Positions 2,636 through 49,014 of a DNA stretch of 49,014 nt are shown here, piece by piece. The translations under genes and the position numbers were made by a program. The number at the start of each line of letters is the position of its first letter. The first letter of the stretch is position 1. The stretch is from the UHGV virus genome UHGV-1369627; one strand, 5' to 3'. The notes beneath the pieces are model-generated. The model did not search any database and was not told where the DNA came from. It worked only from the letters and a program-made list of their open reading frames with translations. This DNA comes from a virus.

Positions 2636-4546
2636 TTAAAATTCTTTTCTGTGGATTATGTCGCGGCCTTTATCGTTAAAACGATGCGTTATGCGCTTTG
2701 GCGCGCGGATAAGACCAGTGAACGCCATGAATGCTTTTGCGTTGTGGCAATTCATGAGGTTATCAATCATATTCCTGTCTGATACGTGGTTTAGTAATCC
2801 TTTAATCTTAAACTGATTTTTAAGGTACTTCTCCTGCCTGCCAAATGGATAGAACACCTCACCGGCCCAGCCATCTTTGCCGTTTTCTTTCGTGATGAAG
2901 TAACGATAGACAACGCCCTTCTCATCTTTCGTTAGCTCAATCTTGAAATCCTTGACTTCAGTCCATTCATTATCCGTATAAGCACGCTCATTAAGCGCCG
3001 CATTTGGGTCGCGTAAAACGTGATCGCATTGACGGCAATAACGAGCTGTCGGGTCGTTCTTTGTGCCGCAACCATCATCAAAAATACGGATGCCGTGCTT
3101 GTCGAAACCACAGCGAATGAAGCTGAAAAACTCTTCGCATCGTCCATCTGGCGATGTTGCATCTTTACCAATGCATCGCCGTGCGTATGGGCTGTTCATC
3201 GTCTGGCATTTAGGGCATGGAACCTGCTCTCCGCTGCGCTTGGCGCGTTGTGCTTCTGCTTCCTCAAGAATAGGGTCTTCATACAGGCCACCAAGTTCGA
3301 ACATGGTTCCGGTAAAGTCAAGGCAAAGATGGTTTTCTTTCACCAGGCCTGCGGCAATCTGGTCTGGCTTCAACAGGCGCATCGGTCTGCCTAGCAACTG
3401 CGTCAGAAGCGTCAGGGACATTATTTTTCTCAGAATGACAGACGTATCCCAATATGGGATGTTGACACCAGTCGTCAGGCAACCGATTTGCAGCGTGTAT
3501 TTTTTGCGCCCGGTTGCCGCATCTTTCAGAGCTTTCCGTCTGGCTTTCTGCCCCATATCCTCGGTAACAATGGAATAACTGCCTTCTGGTAAATATTTTG
3601 CAGCCTCCTTGCAATGTTTTTTACCTGCGCAGGTAATGAGTACACCAAGTCTGTCGCGCGTAAGCTCCATGACTTTGAGCATTATTTTTTGCGTCAATGT
3701 ACCCTGCTTGAGGATTTCTTCCTGCATCTCTTTTAGCTGGCTATCAGTAAAGTCCTGCACGCCGTCAACTTCACTACTGGCAAACTCATGCAGATCGTAT
3801 TGCAAGTCCTCGATATCCTGGCCGCCGAAAATTGTCGGAACCAGAAATCCAAGATCGACAAGGTATTTTGTGCTGATGTTGACAATTTCATGTTTCCAGT
3901 AAGCCCCTTTTATCGACTCAACGCCGCGAAATGGGCTGCCGGTGTAGCCGATGACAATCACCTCATGCCCATACTTCGCTTTACAGCGCCGGTTAAGTTC
4001 ATTCATAATGACACCGTACTGCGTCTCTGGCTGCTCTGATATTATGTCCTGCCAGTTAACCTGATGGCATTCATCGACAAGGATGTAGCGAGGGGAAAAG
4101 TCTGATAGCAGTGATTTCGTCACGGTGCCATCATCGGCTGTCTTATCAAAAAGACCATTTATTATTGTGCCCTCCGTTCCCGCTATAAGCGGATAGGCAT
4201 ATGCTTTACGCCCAAGTGAAGCGCTAAACAGAGAGTTTTTTACGCTCAGGTTCCAAAGCTCCTCAGCATCCTGCTCAATAATTTCGCCTTGCCTTGCGAT
4301 GACAAGCCCCTCCCACCCCATATCCTGAAACCGACGGGCAATCATGGCTATCATGATGGTCTTGCCAGCGCCAACCGACGCGGTAACATAACTTGGCTTG
4401 GGCTGCTTACCAAACTTGCGGATAACTTCCGCTGTCTTTTCATATACCAGCCACTGATAGGGGCGCGGTTCAATTTCCCCGGTATGGATGCTGGCTCGCA
4501 GCTTATCCATATCCAGCTCAGCAATCATTGCATCAATTTTTTGCAT
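2636..4546 (-). CDS. SF2 DEAD/DEAH-box DNA helicase with C-terminal Cys4 zinc ribbons
   Basis: 636 aa. Walker A GAGKT. DECH box LVDECHQ. C-terminal CPKCQ...CRQCDH zinc fingers. Confidence 0.8.
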   Translation of the reverse strand: MQKIDAMIAELDMDKLRASIHTGEIEPRPYQWLVYEKTAEVIRKFGKQPKPSYVTASVGAGKTIMIAMIARRFQDMGWEGLVIARQGEIIEQDAEELWNLSVKNSLFSASLGRKAYAYPLIAGTEGTIINGLFDKTADDGTVTKSLLSDFSPRYILVDECHQVNWQDIISEQPETQYGVIMNELNRRCKAKYGHEVIVIGYTGSPFRGVESIKGAYWKHEIVNISTKYLVDLGFLVPTIFGGQDIEDLQYDLHEFASSEVDGVQDFTDSQLKEMQEEILKQGTLTQKIMLKVMELTRDRLGVLITCAGKKHCKEAAKYLPEGSYSIVTEDMGQKARRKALKDAATGRKKYTLQIGCLTTGVNIPYWDTSVILRKIMSLTLLTQLLGRPMRLLKPDQIAAGLVKENHLCLDFTGTMFELGGLYEDPILEEAEAQRAKRSGEQVPCPKCQTMNSPYARRCIGKDATSPDGRCEEFFSFIRCGFDKHGIRIFDDGCGTKNDPTARYCRQCDHVLRDPNAALNERAYTDNEWTEVKDFKIELTKDEKGVVYRYFITKENGKDGWAGEVFYPFGRQEKYLKNQFKIKGLLNHVSDRNMIDNLMNCHNAKAFMAFTGLIRAPKRITHRFNDKGRDIIHRKEF

Positions 4547-8406: not shown

Positions 8407-8435
8407 TTGACGTAGATTTAGCGCAGTCGTATAGT
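8407..8435 (+). promoter_or_regulatory. early promoter TTGACGTAGATT-N11-TATAGT
   Basis: -35 TTGACG at 8407..8412, conserved TAGATT at 8413..8418, -10 TATAGT at 8430..8435. Lies 22 nt before the 8457 gene. Confidence 0.55.
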
Positions 8436-29196: not shown

Positions 29197-29224
29197 AAAG
29201 GGGGCGTTAGCCCCCTTCTTTATA
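29197..29224. terminator. bidirectional rho-independent terminator
   Basis: GGGGGC-GTTA-GCCCCC followed by TTCTTTATA. Confidence 0.7.
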
Positions 29225-30004
29225 CCTTATCTCGCCATAAACCATCCATTGAAGCATATAGCACCACTCCCACTCTGTAATATCATTCCTTAGCCATCGG
29301 CTATTCTTTTTGAAATTGTACTCTGCGGGTTCAGCTTTAAGGTTGTACAGGCAGTTAACCAGTTCTGGATGTATAAGCCCATTCTTAACAAACCAGTTCA
29401 CAGGAAGAATATGGTCAATATGCCATGAACTTCTATCATCAAAGCTCATCCATGCCTCCATTGTTGACTCTATATGGTTAACAAATTCATCTTTTGAGTA
29501 ACCAAGAACTTCATCAATGCTTGAATCAGAAAGAACAGTGCCGATCTTGATATCCATTCTTTCCAGAGTCTTCCTCAGCAACCTATGGTGTGGATTGTCT
29601 ATCGCCCATTGCTTTACGTTTTGCAGTGCCTTTGCGTTACCATTTTTTGAGTAATACCATTTACGATAAATCTTCCTTTTCTTCTCCAAAAACTCCTCGC
29701 GCCTCAAGGGGTCTTCTCTCATCCTTTTGCTATATTTGGAGCCATTAAGCGACCTCCTTCTCCTGTTTTCTTCCTTTGAGTAATATTTATCATATGATTT
29801 TTTTCGGCTAATACGCTCCTTTTCCTGCCCCTCGCTTGTTGCGCGCTTGGCTCTGGTGAACTCATACAAACAATCCTTACATCTCCCTCCGCCAGCAGTA
29901 AAAAAGGTAATGCACCCGCATTTTGCGCAAGGGAGTTCAGTGCAGACAAACTGCTTTAATCCCTGCTCCCTGGCTTTAATGGCCAGCTCTTTTCTTGTAG
30001 CCAT
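29207..30004 (-). CDS. HNH endonuclease (Zn-ribbon N-terminus, HNHc C-terminus)
   Basis: WHIDHILPV motif. True start taken at MATRKEL (30004), not at the 366-aa ORF start. Confidence 0.6.
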   Translation of the reverse strand: MATRKELAIKAREQGLKQFVCTELPCAKCGCITFFTAGGGRCKDCLYEFTRAKRATSEGQEKERISRKKSYDKYYSKEENRRRRSLNGSKYSKRMREDPLRREEFLEKKRKIYRKWYYSKNGNAKALQNVKQWAIDNPHHRLLRKTLERMDIKIGTVLSDSSIDEVLGYSKDEFVNHIESTMEAWMSFDDRSSWHIDHILPVNWFVKNGLIHPELVNCLYNLKAEPAEYNFKKNSRWLRNDITEWEWCYMLQWMVYGEIRYKEGG

Positions 30005-30057
30005 AGTGTAATCCTTGCTGATTTGGTTTTGCCATCTTATCACATCAACGCGCCATG

Positions 30058-30331: not shown

Positions 30332-31150
30332 ATGGCTGTCAGGTATGAAATAAACACAACTCCAGCTGACGGAGAGGTTTTGCTTAGTGAAACCATGTCA
30401 GCAGACTGGACTGCATTGCAGGTGCAGATTGTGCCATTAAACTCTTCCGGCGGTCATGCACCATTAACAAGCGGCTCTGTTTCCGTAATGGTATCGCCGT
30501 TTGCATCTGGTGACTTCTGGATTGACGTTAACAATAATAATTATTATGGCGTAGCACTGCGACTGAAGGTGATTAAGTCGCAGCTCCCTGCTGGCGTTGC
30601 ATCTCTGAAAGTCCTGGTGTGGCGAGCTGATACCTCAGTGCCATCAAGTCAGGTTGTCGCGCAGTCCTACTCGGAGCTTGCCAATAAGCAGGGAAAGCTA
30701 TTCACCGCATCTCGTCGCGTGACCGATGTCGCTGGCGGTGCCAATCTTGACAGCATTTTTATTACCGGCTCAAAACAGGTTGTGTTTAACCAGCGCATAA
30801 TCGGATACACCGGTAAAGGTGTCGTAGCGTCAATCTACCGTGGAGCTGTAGCCACTGGTGGAACTTCTGCCGAGATTAACAACCCAAACGATGTCATCCC
30901 GCAAGCTGTGACTACGCAGTTGCTGACTGGCTCTACTGTGACAAGTGTGGGGCAACTAACGGTGGCCGCGACGTATAGTGAAGGGAACGCATCGAACCAG
31001 GGGCAGGGTAATTCACAGGCAAAACTTGGTGAGCAGGTCATCATGGCGCCTAATACTACCTATCTGTTACGCATCACGTCCCTGGATACTGCGGCGCAAA
31101 ATATCAATGCTTACGTTTCGTGGTTTGAGGATGACGCTTATCTTCCGTGA
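30332..31150 (+). CDS. virion structural protein (beta-rich, Thr/Ser/Val-rich)
   Basis: Start at MAVRYE with RBS GGGGGT; ORF 30320..31150. Confidence 0.45.
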   Translation: MAVRYEINTTPADGEVLLSETMSADWTALQVQIVPLNSSGGHAPLTSGSVSVMVSPFASGDFWIDVNNNNYYGVALRLKVIKSQLPAGVASLKVLVWRADTSVPSSQVVAQSYSELANKQGKLFTASRRVTDVAGGANLDSIFITGSKQVVFNQRIIGYTGKGVVASIYRGAVATGGTSAEINNPNDVIPQAVTTQLLTGSTVTSVGQLTVAATYSEGNASNQGQGNSQAKLGEQVIMAPNTTYLLRITSLDTAAQNINAYVSWFEDDAYLP

Positions 31151-31155
31151 TAAAA

Positions 31156-31190
31156 GAAAAGCCCCGAAAGGGGCTTTGTTTATTGTTTGT
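31156..31190. terminator. bidirectional rho-independent terminator
   Basis: AAGCCCC-GAAA-GGGGCTT with T-runs on both strands. Confidence 0.7.
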
Positions 31191-31365
31191 CCGGGTCTGC
31201 GTAGAAATTCAGTAGCTTTATGAAATCTCTTTTCCCTGAATGATTAAGATAAAATCCGGCAATTTCATTAAATACTTCATTTGATGCTTTTACAGAGAAG
31301 CCCATGTTGAGTGCGTCACGGGCTGCAATGGCCGCTTTTTTTGTTGTTTCTTTAATGCTCATCAC
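31180..31365 (-). CDS. hypothetical protein
   Basis: 61 aa; last gene of the ParB-like operon. Confidence 0.4.
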   Translation of the reverse strand: MMSIKETTKKAAIAARDALNMGFSVKASNEVFNEIAGFYLNHSGKRDFIKLLNFYADPDKQ

Positions 31366-31901
31366 TAAATCCTCATCGGCATAACGATAACTTTGGCAGT
31401 CTCGCCAGTTGGCGCACTGATGTTTGCGACGGCCGCGCTGGTGTTTCCGTTCAGTTCAAAGAGCACCGCTTCAAATTTCGGGTTAAACAGCCTCGCCAGC
31501 TTCTCAACATCTGCCAGATATTTGGCATTAAAGCCAATCTGTTCTGCTGGCGCAGTCTGCTTTGGAGTAACACGATCAATGTAAGGGAATCGGCCATTAA
31601 TCTCAGAGCAGATACCTGCGCCTACCATGATTTCATGCTCGTCATGGTAAGTAACAATACCTGTTTTGGTGTCCAGTAGCGCATGCGCATAGCGCTTGGT
31701 TGGCGACTTGCTGACAGAAACGATAACGTTATCTTTCAACTTATTTTCATGCTTACTGGCAATCATGGCGCGATGACCGTCAGTAGCGGCAACTCGACCA
31801 TCAGGCATAAAGCAAATGCCATTCAGGTAGTAACGCACATCATGTTTGGCCTGAAATATCAAAGCACCTTCAAGGAGCAACTTGCTAACTTTTAATTTCA
31901 T
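31365..31901 (-). CDS. truncated DNA polymerase III beta sliding-clamp (DnaN) homolog, about 178 aa
   Basis: Shares blocks with E. coli DnaN: KHDVRYYLNGICF...ATDGHRAMIA, GRFPYIDRVTPK, IGFNAKYLADV and C-terminal VIVMPMRI. RBS GGTGAAGGTGAAG. Start at MKLKVS within ORF 31365..31943. Confidence 0.65.
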   Translation of the reverse strand: MKLKVSKLLLEGALIFQAKHDVRYYLNGICFMPDGRVAATDGHRAMIASKHENKLKDNVIVSVSKSPTKRYAHALLDTKTGIVTYHDEHEIMVGAGICSEINGRFPYIDRVTPKQTAPAEQIGFNAKYLADVEKLARLFNPKFEAVLFELNGNTSAAVANISAPTGETAKVIVMPMRI

Positions 31902-32101
31902 TTCTTCACCTTCACCATGTGTTGTTTTGCAACCTTCAGGCATTCATCGAAAATCTTGCCCTTCTTTTCACTCTGGTTGAGCCTGTAGTGGGTAATGGCG
32001 GCCTCTATGGCCGCGTTGTCGATGCCTGGCAGTTTTTCGCGCAGGTTTTTCTCTATGAATTGTTCGGGGTTCATTACCAACTCTCCACCACGTTTGCGCA
32101 T
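31898..32101 (-). CDS. hypothetical protein
   Basis: 67 aa. Confidence 0.4.
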   Translation of the reverse strand: MRKRGGELVMNPEQFIEKNLREKLPGIDNAAIEAAITHYRLNQSEKKGKIFDECLKVAKQHMVKVKK

Positions 32102-32271
32102 TCATCATAAAATAAGAAATGCCTTGTTTTTTCTTCGTAACGCTTCATTTCAAATGCGATTATGTCCTCCTGATAGTGAATTTTATCCACCTGGCGAACC
32201 ACGCCGTCTCGCATTAGGATATGATCGCCTTCTTTTATGTTTTTTGCAGCAGTGCCAATTGTAATCATCAC
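32074..32271 (-). CDS. hypothetical protein
   Basis: 65 aa. Confidence 0.4.
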   Translation of the reverse strand: MMITIGTAAKNIKEGDHILMRDGVVRQVDKIHYQEDIIAFEMKRYEEKTRHFLFYDECANVVESW

Positions 32272-33119
32272 AGCTTCTCCAGAATCGCCAGCACTTCATT
32301 CAACTCCGCAGAAGGAAGGCGCAAAAATTCTTCTGTCTCCTGTGCCACATGGCCCTCAGCTACAACCATGTGATCTGCTTCTTTCAGCAACTGAATCAGG
32401 CGGTCAATCGGCTTAACTTTTTTGGCCTTGAGCGTTTTCGCCGTCACCTTATCTTTGCCCTGCGCTTTCGCTTCCTCAACGGCAGCATCAATAACGTTAA
32501 CGGCATCATCGCCATGCTCACGCGCCACTGCAACGGCGTTGGCATAGCTGATTTGTCCTGCGTTGATTCGCTGCTTGATGGCATCAGGCACATCACCAAG
32601 TGACAGGTGCATCTGCACATCAGAAACTGAGCGGCCTACTTTTTTGGCGATTTCTTCATTCGTCCATCCGAACCCTTTCAGGCGCACATAAGCCTTTGCA
32701 CGCTCAAGCGGGTCGAGTTGCTTGCCCTGACTGGAAGACACCATGAAGGCGATTTTATCCGCTTCATCACCGGTGAAGTCTTTGCACTCAATGCGCGCAA
32801 TTGGCACGCCGCGATCAATGGCACGCAATGCACCAAGATAACGATGCTGACCGTCAAGAATCTTAATGCGCTTTCCGTCAGTATCAGGAATAACAGTTAA
32901 CGCCGGGATTGGCTGGCCTGATTCCCAGCACTGCGCGAAGTATTCAACGTGCTGCTCATCTGCTTCGCGGATGTTGTACCCCGGCTCAAGGTAAAGCTGA
33001 TCGACAGGAACCTGATAACCTTTGTTGACCACGATTCCGCCGCGAGTTTCTTTGTCTGAGTAAATTTTTCCGAGAGATGTCATCTTTTCCTCACTTTGAT
33101 AAACAGATTGCACTGGCAA
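32268..33119 (-). CDS. ParB-like nuclease domain protein (ParB/Srx fold)
   Basis: ILDGQHR motif. HTH-like central region. Lys-rich C-terminus. Confidence 0.65.
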   Translation of the reverse strand: MPVQSVYQSEEKMTSLGKIYSDKETRGGIVVNKGYQVPVDQLYLEPGYNIREADEQHVEYFAQCWESGQPIPALTVIPDTDGKRIKILDGQHRYLGALRAIDRGVPIARIECKDFTGDEADKIAFMVSSSQGKQLDPLERAKAYVRLKGFGWTNEEIAKKVGRSVSDVQMHLSLGDVPDAIKQRINAGQISYANAVAVAREHGDDAVNVIDAAVEEAKAQGKDKVTAKTLKAKKVKPIDRLIQLLKEADHMVVAEGHVAQETEEFLRLPSAELNEVLAILEKL

Positions 33120-33203
33120 TGGCGAATCCGATAACGATTAACGCCAGCTTAATCTTGAAAATGCGCCATGCTTTCAGGTCTTCTTTGCGGATTTCGTGGC
33201 GGA

Positions 33204-33521
33204 TCATTTGGATTCTCCGAGTGCTTTGGTGATGGCAGAAACCAACTTCTCTCTAAGGTCTGGTTTCTGCTGCGACATCCAGAATCCAATCTCATCAAGT
33301 GTCGAGGTTAACGCTTCCAGCAACTCCGGCGCAGCGGCCATTATTCGTTGGTTAGCAACTTGAACCTCAACTTCAGGGTCAAACTCAACCCAACCGACAG
33401 GAATAATCATTCCATAAGACTGGTCGTCCTCTGTTGATTTTGGCCCTATTGCCCTGTCGTTATCGATAAACCACGGCCCAGGCGTACCTTTGAATTCATT
33501 CATCTTCATCACCTCTAACAT
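33204..33521 (-). CDS. hypothetical protein (Ead/Ea22-like motif ...ANQRIMAAAPELLEAL...)
   Basis: 105 aa. First gene of the leftward operon. Confidence 0.45.
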   Translation of the reverse strand: MLEVMKMNEFKGTPGPWFIDNDRAIGPKSTEDDQSYGMIIPVGWVEFDPEVEVQVANQRIMAAAPELLEALTSTLDEIGFWMSQQKPDLREKLVSAITKALGESK

Positions 33522-33531
33522 TTATTGTTGT

Positions 33532-33572
33532 TTCTACGTCATCACTATAGCGACACCCTCAATCTACGTCAA
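33532..33572 (-). promoter_or_regulatory. early promoter TTGACGTAGATT-N11-TATAGT (minus strand) with a downstream TGACGTAGA half-repeat
   Basis: The 12-mer is the reverse complement of 33561..33572. The -10 is the reverse complement of 33544..33549. A second TGACGTAGA copy is the reverse complement of 33534..33542. Confidence 0.55.
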
Positions 33573-33579
33573 CACTTTA

Positions 33580-33588
33580 TGATAAAAT
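33580..33588 (+). promoter_or_regulatory. late promoter, extended -10 TGaTAAAAT
   Basis: Upstream of the head-tail connector operon. Confidence 0.4.
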
Positions 33589-33733
33589 TAAACCAACAAC
33601 ACTCACCCCGCGCTGTTCCGTCCTGAAAAACGTAAGGCGGCGAAATTGGATATAGCAATCGGCGTTATCGTCATGGCGTTTTCGCTGGTTCAGGTGTACA
33701 GATGCTGGAAGTTCATCATTCGGAGAATAATTA

Positions 33734-35924: not shown

Positions 35925-36001
35925 TGGTTCCCGCGACAGGATTCGAACCTGTAATCATCCGATTATGAGTCGGGCGCTTTAACCAGTTAAGCTAAACGGG
36001 A
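35925..36001 (-). tRNA. tRNA anticodon CAT (Met, or Ile2 if lysidine-modified)
   Basis: Cloverleaf folded by hand. T-loop GGTTCGAATCC. Anticodon loop CTCATAA. CCA end encoded. Confidence 0.75.
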
Positions 36002-36004
36002 ATT

Positions 36005-36081
36005 TGGTGCACCATACTGGATTCGAACCAGTTACCGATTGCTTAGAAGGCAATTGCTCTATCCTGATGAGCTAATGGTGC
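36005..36081 (-). tRNA. tRNA-Arg (TCT)
   Basis: Acceptor GCACCAT/ATGGTGC. Anticodon loop CTTCTAA. T-loop TTCGAAT. CCA end. Confidence 0.75.
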
Positions 36082-36089
36082 GCTGAATA

Positions 36090-36177
36090 TGGCGGATAGT
36101 ACAGGATTCGAACCTGTGAACCGTTTCCGGTTTATCGGTTAGCAACCGACTGCTTTCGGCCTCTCAGCCAACTATCC
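36090..36177 (-). tRNA. tRNA-Ser (GCT), class II with long variable arm
   Basis: Acceptor GGATAGT/ACTATCC. Anticodon loop TTGCTAA. Variable stem ACCG-GAAA-CGGT. Confidence 0.75.
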
Positions 36178-36564
36178 GTGTTGTTGTGGTGGCCGGTGCT
36201 GATCTCCGGCTTTCTCTGGCATTACGCGTACCCAAGACTATTCTCCAGAGATAGCGCTGTCCTCATCAAGGGGTGCCGTCTCTAACGTATCAGCCTACGC
36301 ATTCACCACAACGATAATGGCACTCGCCAGAGTGGAATATTTTTCAACCGACTGTGAATATCAGGGAGTCCAAGTGCCATTACCTGTTGTGTGCCCATTA
36401 TTAATCACACCGGGCCAGTGCGCCGAATTCATTGACAAGGAGTCGGAAGACCTTGCTGGTGTTTAGCCGTTAGGCTACTGCCAGATACATTTCTTCGTTT
36501 GCATTTATCTTTGTGGTCAGTTTCTAAAAACCCGCAAAGTCGCACCGAAAACTATCTGCCATTT

Positions 36565-36593
36565 AATCTACACCACCAATCAAAACCTGTCAA
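36565..36593 (-). promoter_or_regulatory. promoter TTGACA-N17-TAGATT (minus strand) driving a ~380-nt leader plus the tRNA cluster
   Basis: -35 is the reverse complement of 36588..36593. -10 is the reverse complement of 36565..36570. Confidence 0.5.
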
Positions 36594-36595
36594 CA

Positions 36596-36604
36596 TGATA
36601 TAAT
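36596..36604 (+). promoter_or_regulatory. late promoter, extended -10 TGaTATAAT
   Basis: Lies 34 nt upstream of the major tail gene. Confidence 0.5.
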
Positions 36605-36638
36605 GCGATTGTTTAGCTAAACACAGAGGATTCTAAAC

Positions 36639-48758: not shown

Positions 48759-49014
48759 TTAAAAGTTTTCGATGTTCTGCTGAGATGTTGATGGCTTCTC
48801 TTCGGTTGCAGCTGGCGCAGGCGCTTCTGCTTTCTGGAGTTTGGCCGGGTTGAAATCGTCCTGCGGCGTGATAGTTACAGCTGCTGGAGATTCATCATTA
48901 ATGAATGATTCAATGCGCTCATATTCTTCTGCTGATGCCTTCAATGTAGGCCAGATTGCACGAATTTTTGCTTTCACTGAATCAGGCAAGTTAACTGCCT
49001 CGGCAGTTAACGCA
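48759..49014 (-). CDS. C-terminal part of the Sak4-like ATPase gene that begins at 782
   Basis: No stop upstream to the window end. Reading phase matches the 782..1 ORF. Pro/Ala/Glu-rich tail. Translationally coupled to ssb. Confidence 0.55.
   Translation of the reverse strand, partial: ALTAEAVNLPDSVKAKIRAIWPTLKASAEEYERIESFINDESPAAVTITPQDDFNPAKLQKAEAPAPAATEEKPSTSQQNIENF

Follow-up and report, generated by a model that had tools for sequence, protein, structure and literature searches.

The 49,014-nucleotide viral genome UHGV-1369627, referred to in its whole length as the window, carries seven small minus-strand open reading frames (ORFs) packed tightly between positions 31180 and 33521, and the locus raises the question of what such an operon does among structural genes that are transcribed in the opposite direction. 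The initial annotation described it as an accessory module built around a ParB-like nuclease, placed under an early promoter and accompanied by a fragment of the beta clamp DnaN. Our analysis supports the idea of a mosaic accessory operon that combines an orphan ParB-type protein with a putative motif-binding clamp fragment and that is neither a nuclease nor a partition system, a reading to which we assign a probability of roughly one half.

We considered the ParB-type protein in terms of its domains. The gene (32268..33083, minus strand) encodes 271 amino acids (aa), predicted to form a ParB/Srx nucleotide-binding N-terminal domain (NTD), a ParB/KorB helix-turn-helix (HTH) and a small C-terminal alpha/beta domain (CTD); the protein had been listed as 283 aa, and the start is moved here to the ATG at 33083, which has a ribosome-binding site and fits the N-termini of homologues. 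In Pfam, HTH_ParB (4e-11) and KorB (PF08535; 2.6e-6, 27.7 bits with a cut-off of 22.3) were both matched above threshold, and neither PF02195 (ParBc) at E<=1 nor any nuclease domain was found. The NCBIfam matches to parB_part, Noc and DGQHR were all sub-threshold, and TIGR00180 scored 43.4 bits, under its curated cut-off of 58.45. The best sequence matches in the Protein Data Bank (PDB) were Thermus Spo0J (3e-11), followed by Caulobacter and Myxococcus ParB, Noc and KorB. An AlphaFold2 model built from 26 homologues reached a predicted local distance difference test score (pLDDT) of 84.5, and its top Foldseek match was the Caulobacter ParB-parS structure (TM-score 0.76, root-mean-square deviation 3.2, 200 columns), with Noc, KorB and Spo0J among the other leading matches and sulfiredoxin and PadC far lower. 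These matches and the model point to an NTD-HTH-CTD architecture, as in DNA-binding ParB clamps and regulators. The nuclease assignment therefore did not hold up, given the full ParB build with HTH and CTD and the lack of a nuclease domain, a PF02195 match or a PADLOC match. PADLOC, run on all seven operon proteins, returned zero defense or anti-defense matches, so that the proposed link to anti-defense likewise found no backing.

The nucleotide-binding pocket carries YNIRE as Box I and DGQHR as Box II, and Box III is replaced by SSSQGK. In the alignment to Spo0J, GERRYRAA corresponds to DGQHRYLGA, with GxxR alone retained of Box II, and ENLQR corresponds to SSSQG at Box III. Because N37/R39, D77-G78-x-H80-R81 and S117-S118-Q119-G120 are invariant in the 26-member alignment (42-93% identity), the pocket appears remodelled yet strongly constrained. 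A ParA-type Walker A motif (KGGxGK[ST]) was absent from all six frames; furthermore, the ParA-binding motif (L/F/I)G(K/R)G(L/F/I) gave no regular-expression match in ParB and is not conserved in the family at the N-terminus, which here reads MTSLGKIYSDK. Given the absence of a ParA partner and motif, the retained GxxR and the replaced Box III, sequence and model together identify the 271-aa protein as an orphan ParB of the KorB/Noc/HerB kind. It shows what defines an orphan ParB, namely the fold with GxxR, a gene outside any parAB operon and no ParA motif, and it has the KorB DNA-binding domain of the KorB type (PF08535, with KorB structures among the best fold matches). A canonical ParABS ParB was considered and rejected: fold and HTH agree with one, but ParA, the ParA motif, Boxes II and III and TIGR00180 do not.

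The orphan ParB-CTPase-fold proteins of mobile elements surveyed by Kaljevic et al. 2025 (PMC12704722), among them KorB (RK2), Noc, BisD and HerB/YfjB (F plasmid), have in common with the window protein the ParB fold of the NTD, the HTH and the CTD, the absence of a ParA partner and motif, the Box II GxxR, a divergent Box III, the location on a mobile element and probable early expression. Many members of this class have a divergent Box III, and their ligand may be ATP, GTP or CTP (PMC12704722). The window protein differs from other members in its family-specific pocket set (YNIRE / DGQHR / SSQGK), in its small size (271 aa) and in its origin from a lytic siphophage. KorB-type regulators work with a KorA/TrbA-type partner and on several palindromic operators placed at promoters; no repeated operator was found in the window, and no such partner was recognized.

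The neighborhoods of homologues in other phages tie the ParB family to early DNA transactions. In lambdoid prophages, homologues that are 45% identical and share these motifs belong to the early-right operon, in one case between a cII-like/YdaT gene and Rep_O plus DnaB, and in another adjoining RusA, DUF968 and antiterminator Q. In Xanthomonas phage FoX5 and Achromobacter phage Mano, the homologue is flanked by genes for a helicase and a primase; it lies 3′ of the primase amid small genes in Nonanavirus Bas82, and follows the tail genes in the Jilinvirus phages ECO1230-10 and Arya. ParA was found beside none of these homologues, whether in the lambdoid prophages, FoX5, Mano, ECO1230-10, Arya or Bas82. 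The gene-neighborhood comparison proposed in the initial annotation, which had named orthologues with assigned partition or structural roles as evidence against its reading, thus turned up early replication modules instead. A recent precedent from a mobile element is HerB/YfjB of the F plasmid, a ParB-like protein that is expressed early, binds to the DNA of the host and reprograms the cell (PMC13370423). The two lambdoid homologues (locus L098, 7001-10161; locus L097, 7001-8667) lie immediately 5′ of Rep_O/DnaB or RusA, and beside each is an ORF of 40-42 aa that recalls the 38-aa ORF of the window.

The other principal gene of the operon (31365..31901, minus strand) encodes a 178-aa beta-clamp fragment made up of DnaN domain II, the linker and one half-domain. 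Its identification as a "mini-DnaN" was borne out, since all significant matches are to DnaN and a profile of 46 diverse members matched E. coli beta with E=1.8e-24; the length of 192 aa was shortened to 178 aa, with the start at M15 (31901) as in full-length homologues. Profile positions 7-171 correspond to beta residues 136-304, and in an alternative alignment positions 120-178 correspond to beta 315-366, including the C-terminal MPMRL. Domain I is absent, the half-domain merges features of both halves of domain III, and the fragment ends in the clamp C-terminal tail VMPMR(I/L). Scored with TIGR00663, the dnaN equivalog model, it reached 33.4 bits with a cut-off of 137.65. A full library scan placed 1,214 clusters at 50% identity in this family, almost all of them 170-210 aa long. 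The RefSeq name "RusA-like Holliday junction resolvase" (phrog_3007, 4e-55) was examined as an alternative identity and rejected, as there was no PF05866 match at E<=1 besides the uniformly DnaN-type matches.

Conservation within the fragment is concentrated at the pocket that receives clamp-binding motifs. Using 18 pocket residues taken from the subsite I and II lists of a review (PMC11139829), we found 15 of the 18 identical to E. coli beta, compared with 37 of 148 positions elsewhere (25%; Fisher p=2e-6). For the family as a whole, the identity to E. coli beta was 0.70 at pocket positions and 0.19 elsewhere. With a slightly wider list of 20 residues, which adds Y154 and S346 to these 18, pocket residues account for 10 of the 14 family columns with the highest conservation. 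The fragment is homologous to E. coli DnaN (PDB 1MMI/2POL) across domain II and the linker as well as in the C-terminal portion of domain III, and the residues identical in the pocket include the C-terminal MPMR tail; it differs in having 178 rather than 366 aa and in its dimer-interface segment around I272/L273, which is absent or unrecognizable. With domain I and half of domain III missing, the canonical head-to-tail ring dimer cannot form. Judged by these sequence comparisons, the family appears to have been selected to keep the motif-binding site while losing the parts of the ring dimer.

Genes annotated as "DNA Pol III beta subunit fragment" in other phages (Bcep781 gp15 and Dhillonvirus bas14_0007) belong to the same family according to tblastn and phrog_3007, as does the "beta clamp domain protein" of Skatevirus. 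Related phage clamp fragments are often leftward genes within or beside the head genes; unlike them, the window copy stands in a seven-gene operon together with ParB. The family has been annotated since the Bcep781 genome and is unstudied in the literature searched, in which the conservation of the predicted pocket appears to be new.

To place the operon among its relatives, we compared region 31100-33700 with deposited genomes and found 90-94% nucleotide identity to the Roufvirus siphophages VLCpiS13c, ZCKp20p, 6991, ZCKP8, pIS4-A and pYD38-A, for which Klebsiella, "Aeromonas" and "Vibrio" are the hosts named; Skatevirus phages (Salmonella, Escherichia) are more distant kin. The phage carrying the operon is a Roufvirus-like Klebsiella siphophage, and near-identical operons are already known, being annotated in dozens of deposited phage genomes. 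In the deposited Roufvirus operons this identity extends over 83-89% of the region with position and gene order unchanged, whereas the 65-aa cassette and the first gene vary by isolate. On one side of the operon lie genes of the head, namely those for the protease, the decoration protein, the major capsid protein and a protein of 276 aa, and on the other the head-tail joining genes, both antisense to it, in agreement with the initial description of a module wedged between the capsid and connector blocks on the opposite strand. Phages of the Roufvirus and Skatevirus types encode a primase, helicases, a single-stranded DNA-binding protein (SSB) and recombination genes; the close relative VLCpiS13c, with 80 annotated genes, has no annotated DNA polymerase, integrase, ParA, partition ATPase or telomerase. 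No functional studies of the operon, of Roufvirus or Skatevirus ParB or of phage clamp fragments were found in the literature searched, and the BASEL study of Skatevirus leaves the operon genes unaddressed (PMC11990801).

Whether ParB and the clamp fragment form one system was assessed in 80 viral contigs gathered via the ParB alignment and searched with ParB and clamp profiles, counting loci whose sequence continued for 3 kb or more downstream of ParB. The clamp fragment was present in 21 of 34 Roufvirus-like loci and in 23 of 24 Skatevirus-like loci, and in none of 15 distant loci (44-68% ParB identity). Obligate coupling of the two genes is rejected by these counts. The distance from ParB to the clamp fragment ranged from about 170 to 1,600 nt, and genes 5′ of ParB are exchanged between relatives too. 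In VLCpiS13d the stretch from ParB through the 61-aa gene is lost; a second ParB-like paralogue of 214-216 aa (profile E=4e-14, no Pfam match) replaces the 271-aa ParB there as a 216-aa protein at the head of the module (gp38; locus L004, 2595-3245), and in locus L036 the paralogue accompanies ParB. Conversely, Burkholderia phage Bcep781 and a Dhillonvirus have the clamp fragment but no ParB, as a single antisense gene within their head-gene clusters. The variable co-occurrence, spacing and cargo indicate that ParB and the clamp fragment behave as separate cassettes, independent of each other, in an accessory slot prone to recombination, which sits behind a conserved promoter and leader. The view of the locus as an accessory module thus gains support, as its content turns over among close relatives and part of it is dispensable in VLCpiS13d, whereas the pairing with a clamp, called unusual in the initial annotation, is typical yet optional in Roufvirus and Skatevirus, each gene being widespread alone.

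All seven ORFs of the leftward operon were found as described, and their junctions overlap or nearly so, which suggests one translationally coupled operon. The 105-aa and 38-aa ORFs share an ATGA overlap, the 38-aa ORF and ParB are separated by a 7-nt spacer with GAGGA, and the following junctions read GTGATG (ParB to 65 aa), TAATG (65 aa to 58 aa), ATGA (58 aa to clamp fragment) and TAGTGATG (clamp fragment to 61 aa). Across related loci, the ratio of nonsynonymous to synonymous substitution rates (dN/dS) was 0.055 for ParB, 0.11 for the clamp fragment and 0.14 for both the 38-aa ORF and the 58-aa-like cluster; the values of 0.13 for the 65-aa ORF and 0.11 for the 61-aa ORF come from few pairs, only four in the latter case. 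Such low values indicate that the ORFs are real genes under purifying selection. The initial coordinates were right as to the existence of the ORFs, and the bounds of four of them were corrected: besides ParB and the clamp fragment, the 38-aa ORF lies at 33091-33207 instead of 33100-33217, and the gene listed as a 67-aa ORF reaching 32101 most likely starts at 32074 and encodes 58 aa.

The first gene (33204..33521, minus strand; 105 aa), whose true start may be the ATG at 33509 or 33503, is relaxed or diversifying, with a dN/dS of 0.40, and it diverges fast, showing 33-70% identity between phages with nearly the same ParB (about 99% identical). It belongs to phrog_1273, a family with function unassigned in PHROG. 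The label "Ead-like" was not sustained, as the protein had no Pfam or NCBIfam match at E<=1 and its phage homologues are annotated as hypothetical; among the 30 of 101 tblastn matches listed, there were no P22 or lambdoid phages, and all annotated homologues were named "hypothetical protein". The 38-aa ORF (33091..33207, minus strand) has a C-terminal hydrophobic segment, IKLALIVIGFAIASAICL, occurs in 31 related loci and is annotated as a coding sequence in RefSeq relatives. The 65-aa ORF (32074..32271, minus strand; function unassigned) occupies a variable cassette slot, in which relatives have C5 or N6/N4 DNA methyltransferases, a protein with an endonuclease VII domain or other small ORFs. 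The 58-aa gene (31898..32074, minus strand; phrog_4439) is in relatives usually immediately 5′ of the clamp fragment, with an ATGA overlap, and the last gene (31180..31365, minus strand; 61 aa) has an annotated homologue in VLCpiS13c. For the small ORFs beside ParB, Pfam and NCBIfam contained no detectable family and PHROG gave no functional one.

Upstream of the operon, a consensus scan identified a sigma-70-like promoter, TTGACG-17-TATAGT (33572..33544, minus strand), whose -35 hexamer is contained in the 12-mer TTGACGTAGATT at 33561-33572 (minus strand); a second copy of GATGACGTAGAAAC follows shortly downstream of the promoter. Six exact copies of TTGACGTAGATT occur in the window, at 8407(+), 14450(-), 21044(-), 23526(-), 33572(-) and 38504(-), and near-matches include those at 2202(-), 14091(-) and 30136(-). 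Allowing up to two mismatches, we counted 12 matches with 3.7 expected, a number reached in none of 100 shuffles. Every copy sits 5′ of a non-structural gene block, the promoter of each such block is marked by the 12-mer, and a related element, CGTAGATT / CGTATAGT, often recurs at the -10 position or shortly downstream. TTGACGTAGATT also heads the corresponding modules of Roufvirus VLCpiS13c and Skatevirus LPST10. The conserved promoter of the initial annotation was confirmed as a recurrent sigma-70-type site. The 12-mer may be more than a plain -35 box, for example a regulator site; as a candidate ParB site it was rejected, being non-palindromic and reading as a -35 element with adjoining bases.

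A stretch of about 70 nt, comprising promoter, leader and the first five codons (MLEVM), is almost identical between the window (33505-33572) and Skatevirus LPST10 (locus L092, 22656-22725). The remainder of the first gene of LPST10, which is annotated "anti-restriction protein", differs from that of the window. This conserved edge of promoter, leader and MLEVM in LPST10 resembles a recombination boundary for cassette exchange. At the other end, a G+C-rich hairpin with T-runs on both strands, AAAGCCCCGAAAGGGGCTTT (31158-31177), forms a bidirectional intrinsic terminator that begins 4 nt past the final stop codon of the operon and is shared with the convergent 276-aa gene ending at 31150. The bidirectional terminator of the initial annotation is thus present, although it bounds only the 3′ end of the operon rather than flanking it.

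Candidate binding sites for ParB were sought among all perfect inverted repeats in the window with arms of at least 6 nt, followed by comparison with Skatevirus LPST10. The perfect palindrome TGTTTAGCTAAACA (36610-36623) is similar to parS and to the operators of KorB; it is preceded by an extended -10 element, TGATATAAT (36599-36623 for the two together), and lies 16 nt before the ATG of the major tail gene (36639). It is kept across Roufvirus loci and is found as well in VLCpiS13d, which is without the 271-aa ParB. At the same place, LPST10 has GTTAGCAGCTAAC, with another half-site spacing, despite an 81%-identical ParB; this sequence resembles the KorB operator. The palindrome was therefore rejected as a ParB site, being retained without ParB in VLCpiS13d and swapped in Skatevirus, and it may form a hairpin at the 5′ end of an mRNA or serve a different factor as operator.

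Elsewhere in the window, three tRNA genes (Met-CAT, Arg-TCT and Ser-GCT; 35925-36177, minus strand) lie antisense between the head-tail joining and tail genes, and the adjacent stretch of about 420 nt (36180-36600) contains no ORF of at least 90 aa and no Rfam match. An endonuclease VII-like gene (phrog_1035; 29207-30007, minus strand), antisense directly after the major capsid gene, is probably a homing endonuclease. In relatives, HNH, endonuclease VII or TnpB insertions are seen at varied spots among the structural genes. Two further perfect palindromes were recorded, GTTAACTGCCTCGGCAGTTAAC with 10-nt arms at the extreme end of the window (48990-49011) and the 16-bp TTACCTGCGCAGGTAA at 3621-3636.

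Other explanations of the operon have to be weighed with this evidence. We regard it as unlikely that the protein of 271 aa acts as a nuclease of the ParB/Srx fold, degrading host DNA or countering defense, with the operon as an anti-defense module centered on it. The DGQHR motif is of ParB/Srx type, with a weak, sub-threshold DGQHR/DndB-domain match (17.6 bits, cut-off 58.9), the first gene evolves fast, and the slots of relatives hold cargo of anti-restriction type, including the C5 and N6/N4 methyltransferases and the gene annotated "anti-restriction protein"; however, a ParB with HTH and CTD is closest to DNA-binding clamps and regulators rather than nucleases, "ParB-like nuclease" is mostly a historical domain name, and the searches for PF02195 (E<=1), a nuclease domain and PADLOC systems were all negative. 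Moreover, BASEL isolates of the sister group Skatevirus, which may carry the operon, remain markedly sensitive to restriction-modification (PMC11990801). A plasmid-type partition protein that keeps the phage as an extrachromosomal prophage is highly improbable: homology to Spo0J/ParB and the product names in RefSeq ("ParB-like partition protein") and PHROG speak for it, whereas a ParA gene, a ParA-type Walker A and a ParA-binding motif are all absent, VLCpiS13c has no annotated integrase, partition ATPase or telomerase, TIGR00180 stays below its cut-off, no parS-like repeated site was found in the window, and the ParB gene is lost or replaced in VLCpiS13d.

It also seems rather unlikely that ParB and the clamp fragment act as one machine, in which ParB would load at one site of the phage DNA and the clamp fragment, with the 58-aa protein, would bring host Pol III or repair factors to the phage genomes. 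The two genes share an operon in 44 of the 58 Roufvirus-like and Skatevirus-like loci, replication genes adjoin ParB homologues in other phages, and the close relative VLCpiS13c lacks an annotated DNA polymerase. In the distant Pseudomonas phage zjk6, the sole distant co-occurrence, the genes are at most 1.5 kb apart; the Pseudomonas phage LPPA33, whose ParB is about as distant as that of zjk6, has no clamp fragment in the 15 kb examined. Against a common machine stand, in addition, the 13 of 34 Roufvirus-like loci with a 97-99%-identical ParB and no clamp fragment, its absence from all 15 distant loci, the wide distribution of the clamp fragment without ParB, the varying gene content and distance between the pair, and the lack of an evident clamp-binding motif in ParB when the alignment was inspected.

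We therefore return to a mosaic accessory operon of independent cassettes. Host RNA polymerase would read it from the recurrent sigma-70-type promoter, probably early, and gene cassettes would be swapped into and out of it independently. ParB would act as a dimeric DNA binder through its HTH, with the nucleotide-binding NTD as a switch or as a clamp on DNA, and might regulate or organize phage or host DNA in the early replication phase. The clamp fragment, to judge from its retained pocket, would bind proteins with clamp-binding motifs of the QL[SD]LF type, for which Pol III alpha or delta, Pol II/IV/V, Hda and MutS/L are candidates. The retention of the pocket together with the loss of ring parts suggests a decoy, or an adaptor that redirects partners, in a phage with primase and helicases and no annotated DNA polymerase. 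In a bolder formulation, which we consider less likely than not, a large phage family of soluble, non-ring half-clamps captures host proteins with clamp-binding motifs (Pol III alpha/delta, Hda, MutS/L and translesion polymerases), as decoys or as adaptors in phage replication, and ParB, separately, is a KorB/HerB-like nucleotide switch that has a new SSQG variant of the pocket and acts on DNA in early infection.

Several points weigh against this interpretation. AlphaFold2, given a shallow alignment (82-95% identity), returned a pLDDT of 32.5 for the clamp fragment, whose fold, oligomeric state and pocket integrity are predicted from sequence alone. A decoy for Pol III motifs could harm a phage that relies on host Pol III, the early timing is probable by promoter type alone, and the zjk6 neighborhood allows for some functional connection between the two proteins. 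The search yielded no binding site of ParB: the window contained no recurrent palindrome, and those shared with LPST10 were only terminators and coding-sequence coincidences. The nucleotide specificity of orphan ParB proteins is, moreover, unreadable from sequence (PMC12704722).

Two misleading public names, "RusA-like Holliday junction resolvase" for the clamp fragment and "ParB-like partition protein" for the orphan ParB, spread by way of automatic annotation. The 271-aa protein is a new member, from a lytic phage, of the recognized and still growing group of ParB proteins that lack a partner and are encoded on mobile elements, and its conserved alternative pocket, DGQHR/SSQG, might shed light on how nucleotides are selected. 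Antibiotics already target the clamp pocket, and the half-clamp, if it binds as predicted, would be a ready-made protein tool for probing it. A takeover strategy based on such half-clamps would be unlike that of the phage peptides already described, which plug the clamp of the host. If the prediction for the clamp fragment is correct, many siphophages and myophages would carry a minimal pocket module able to titrate or redirect the clamp-interaction network of their hosts.

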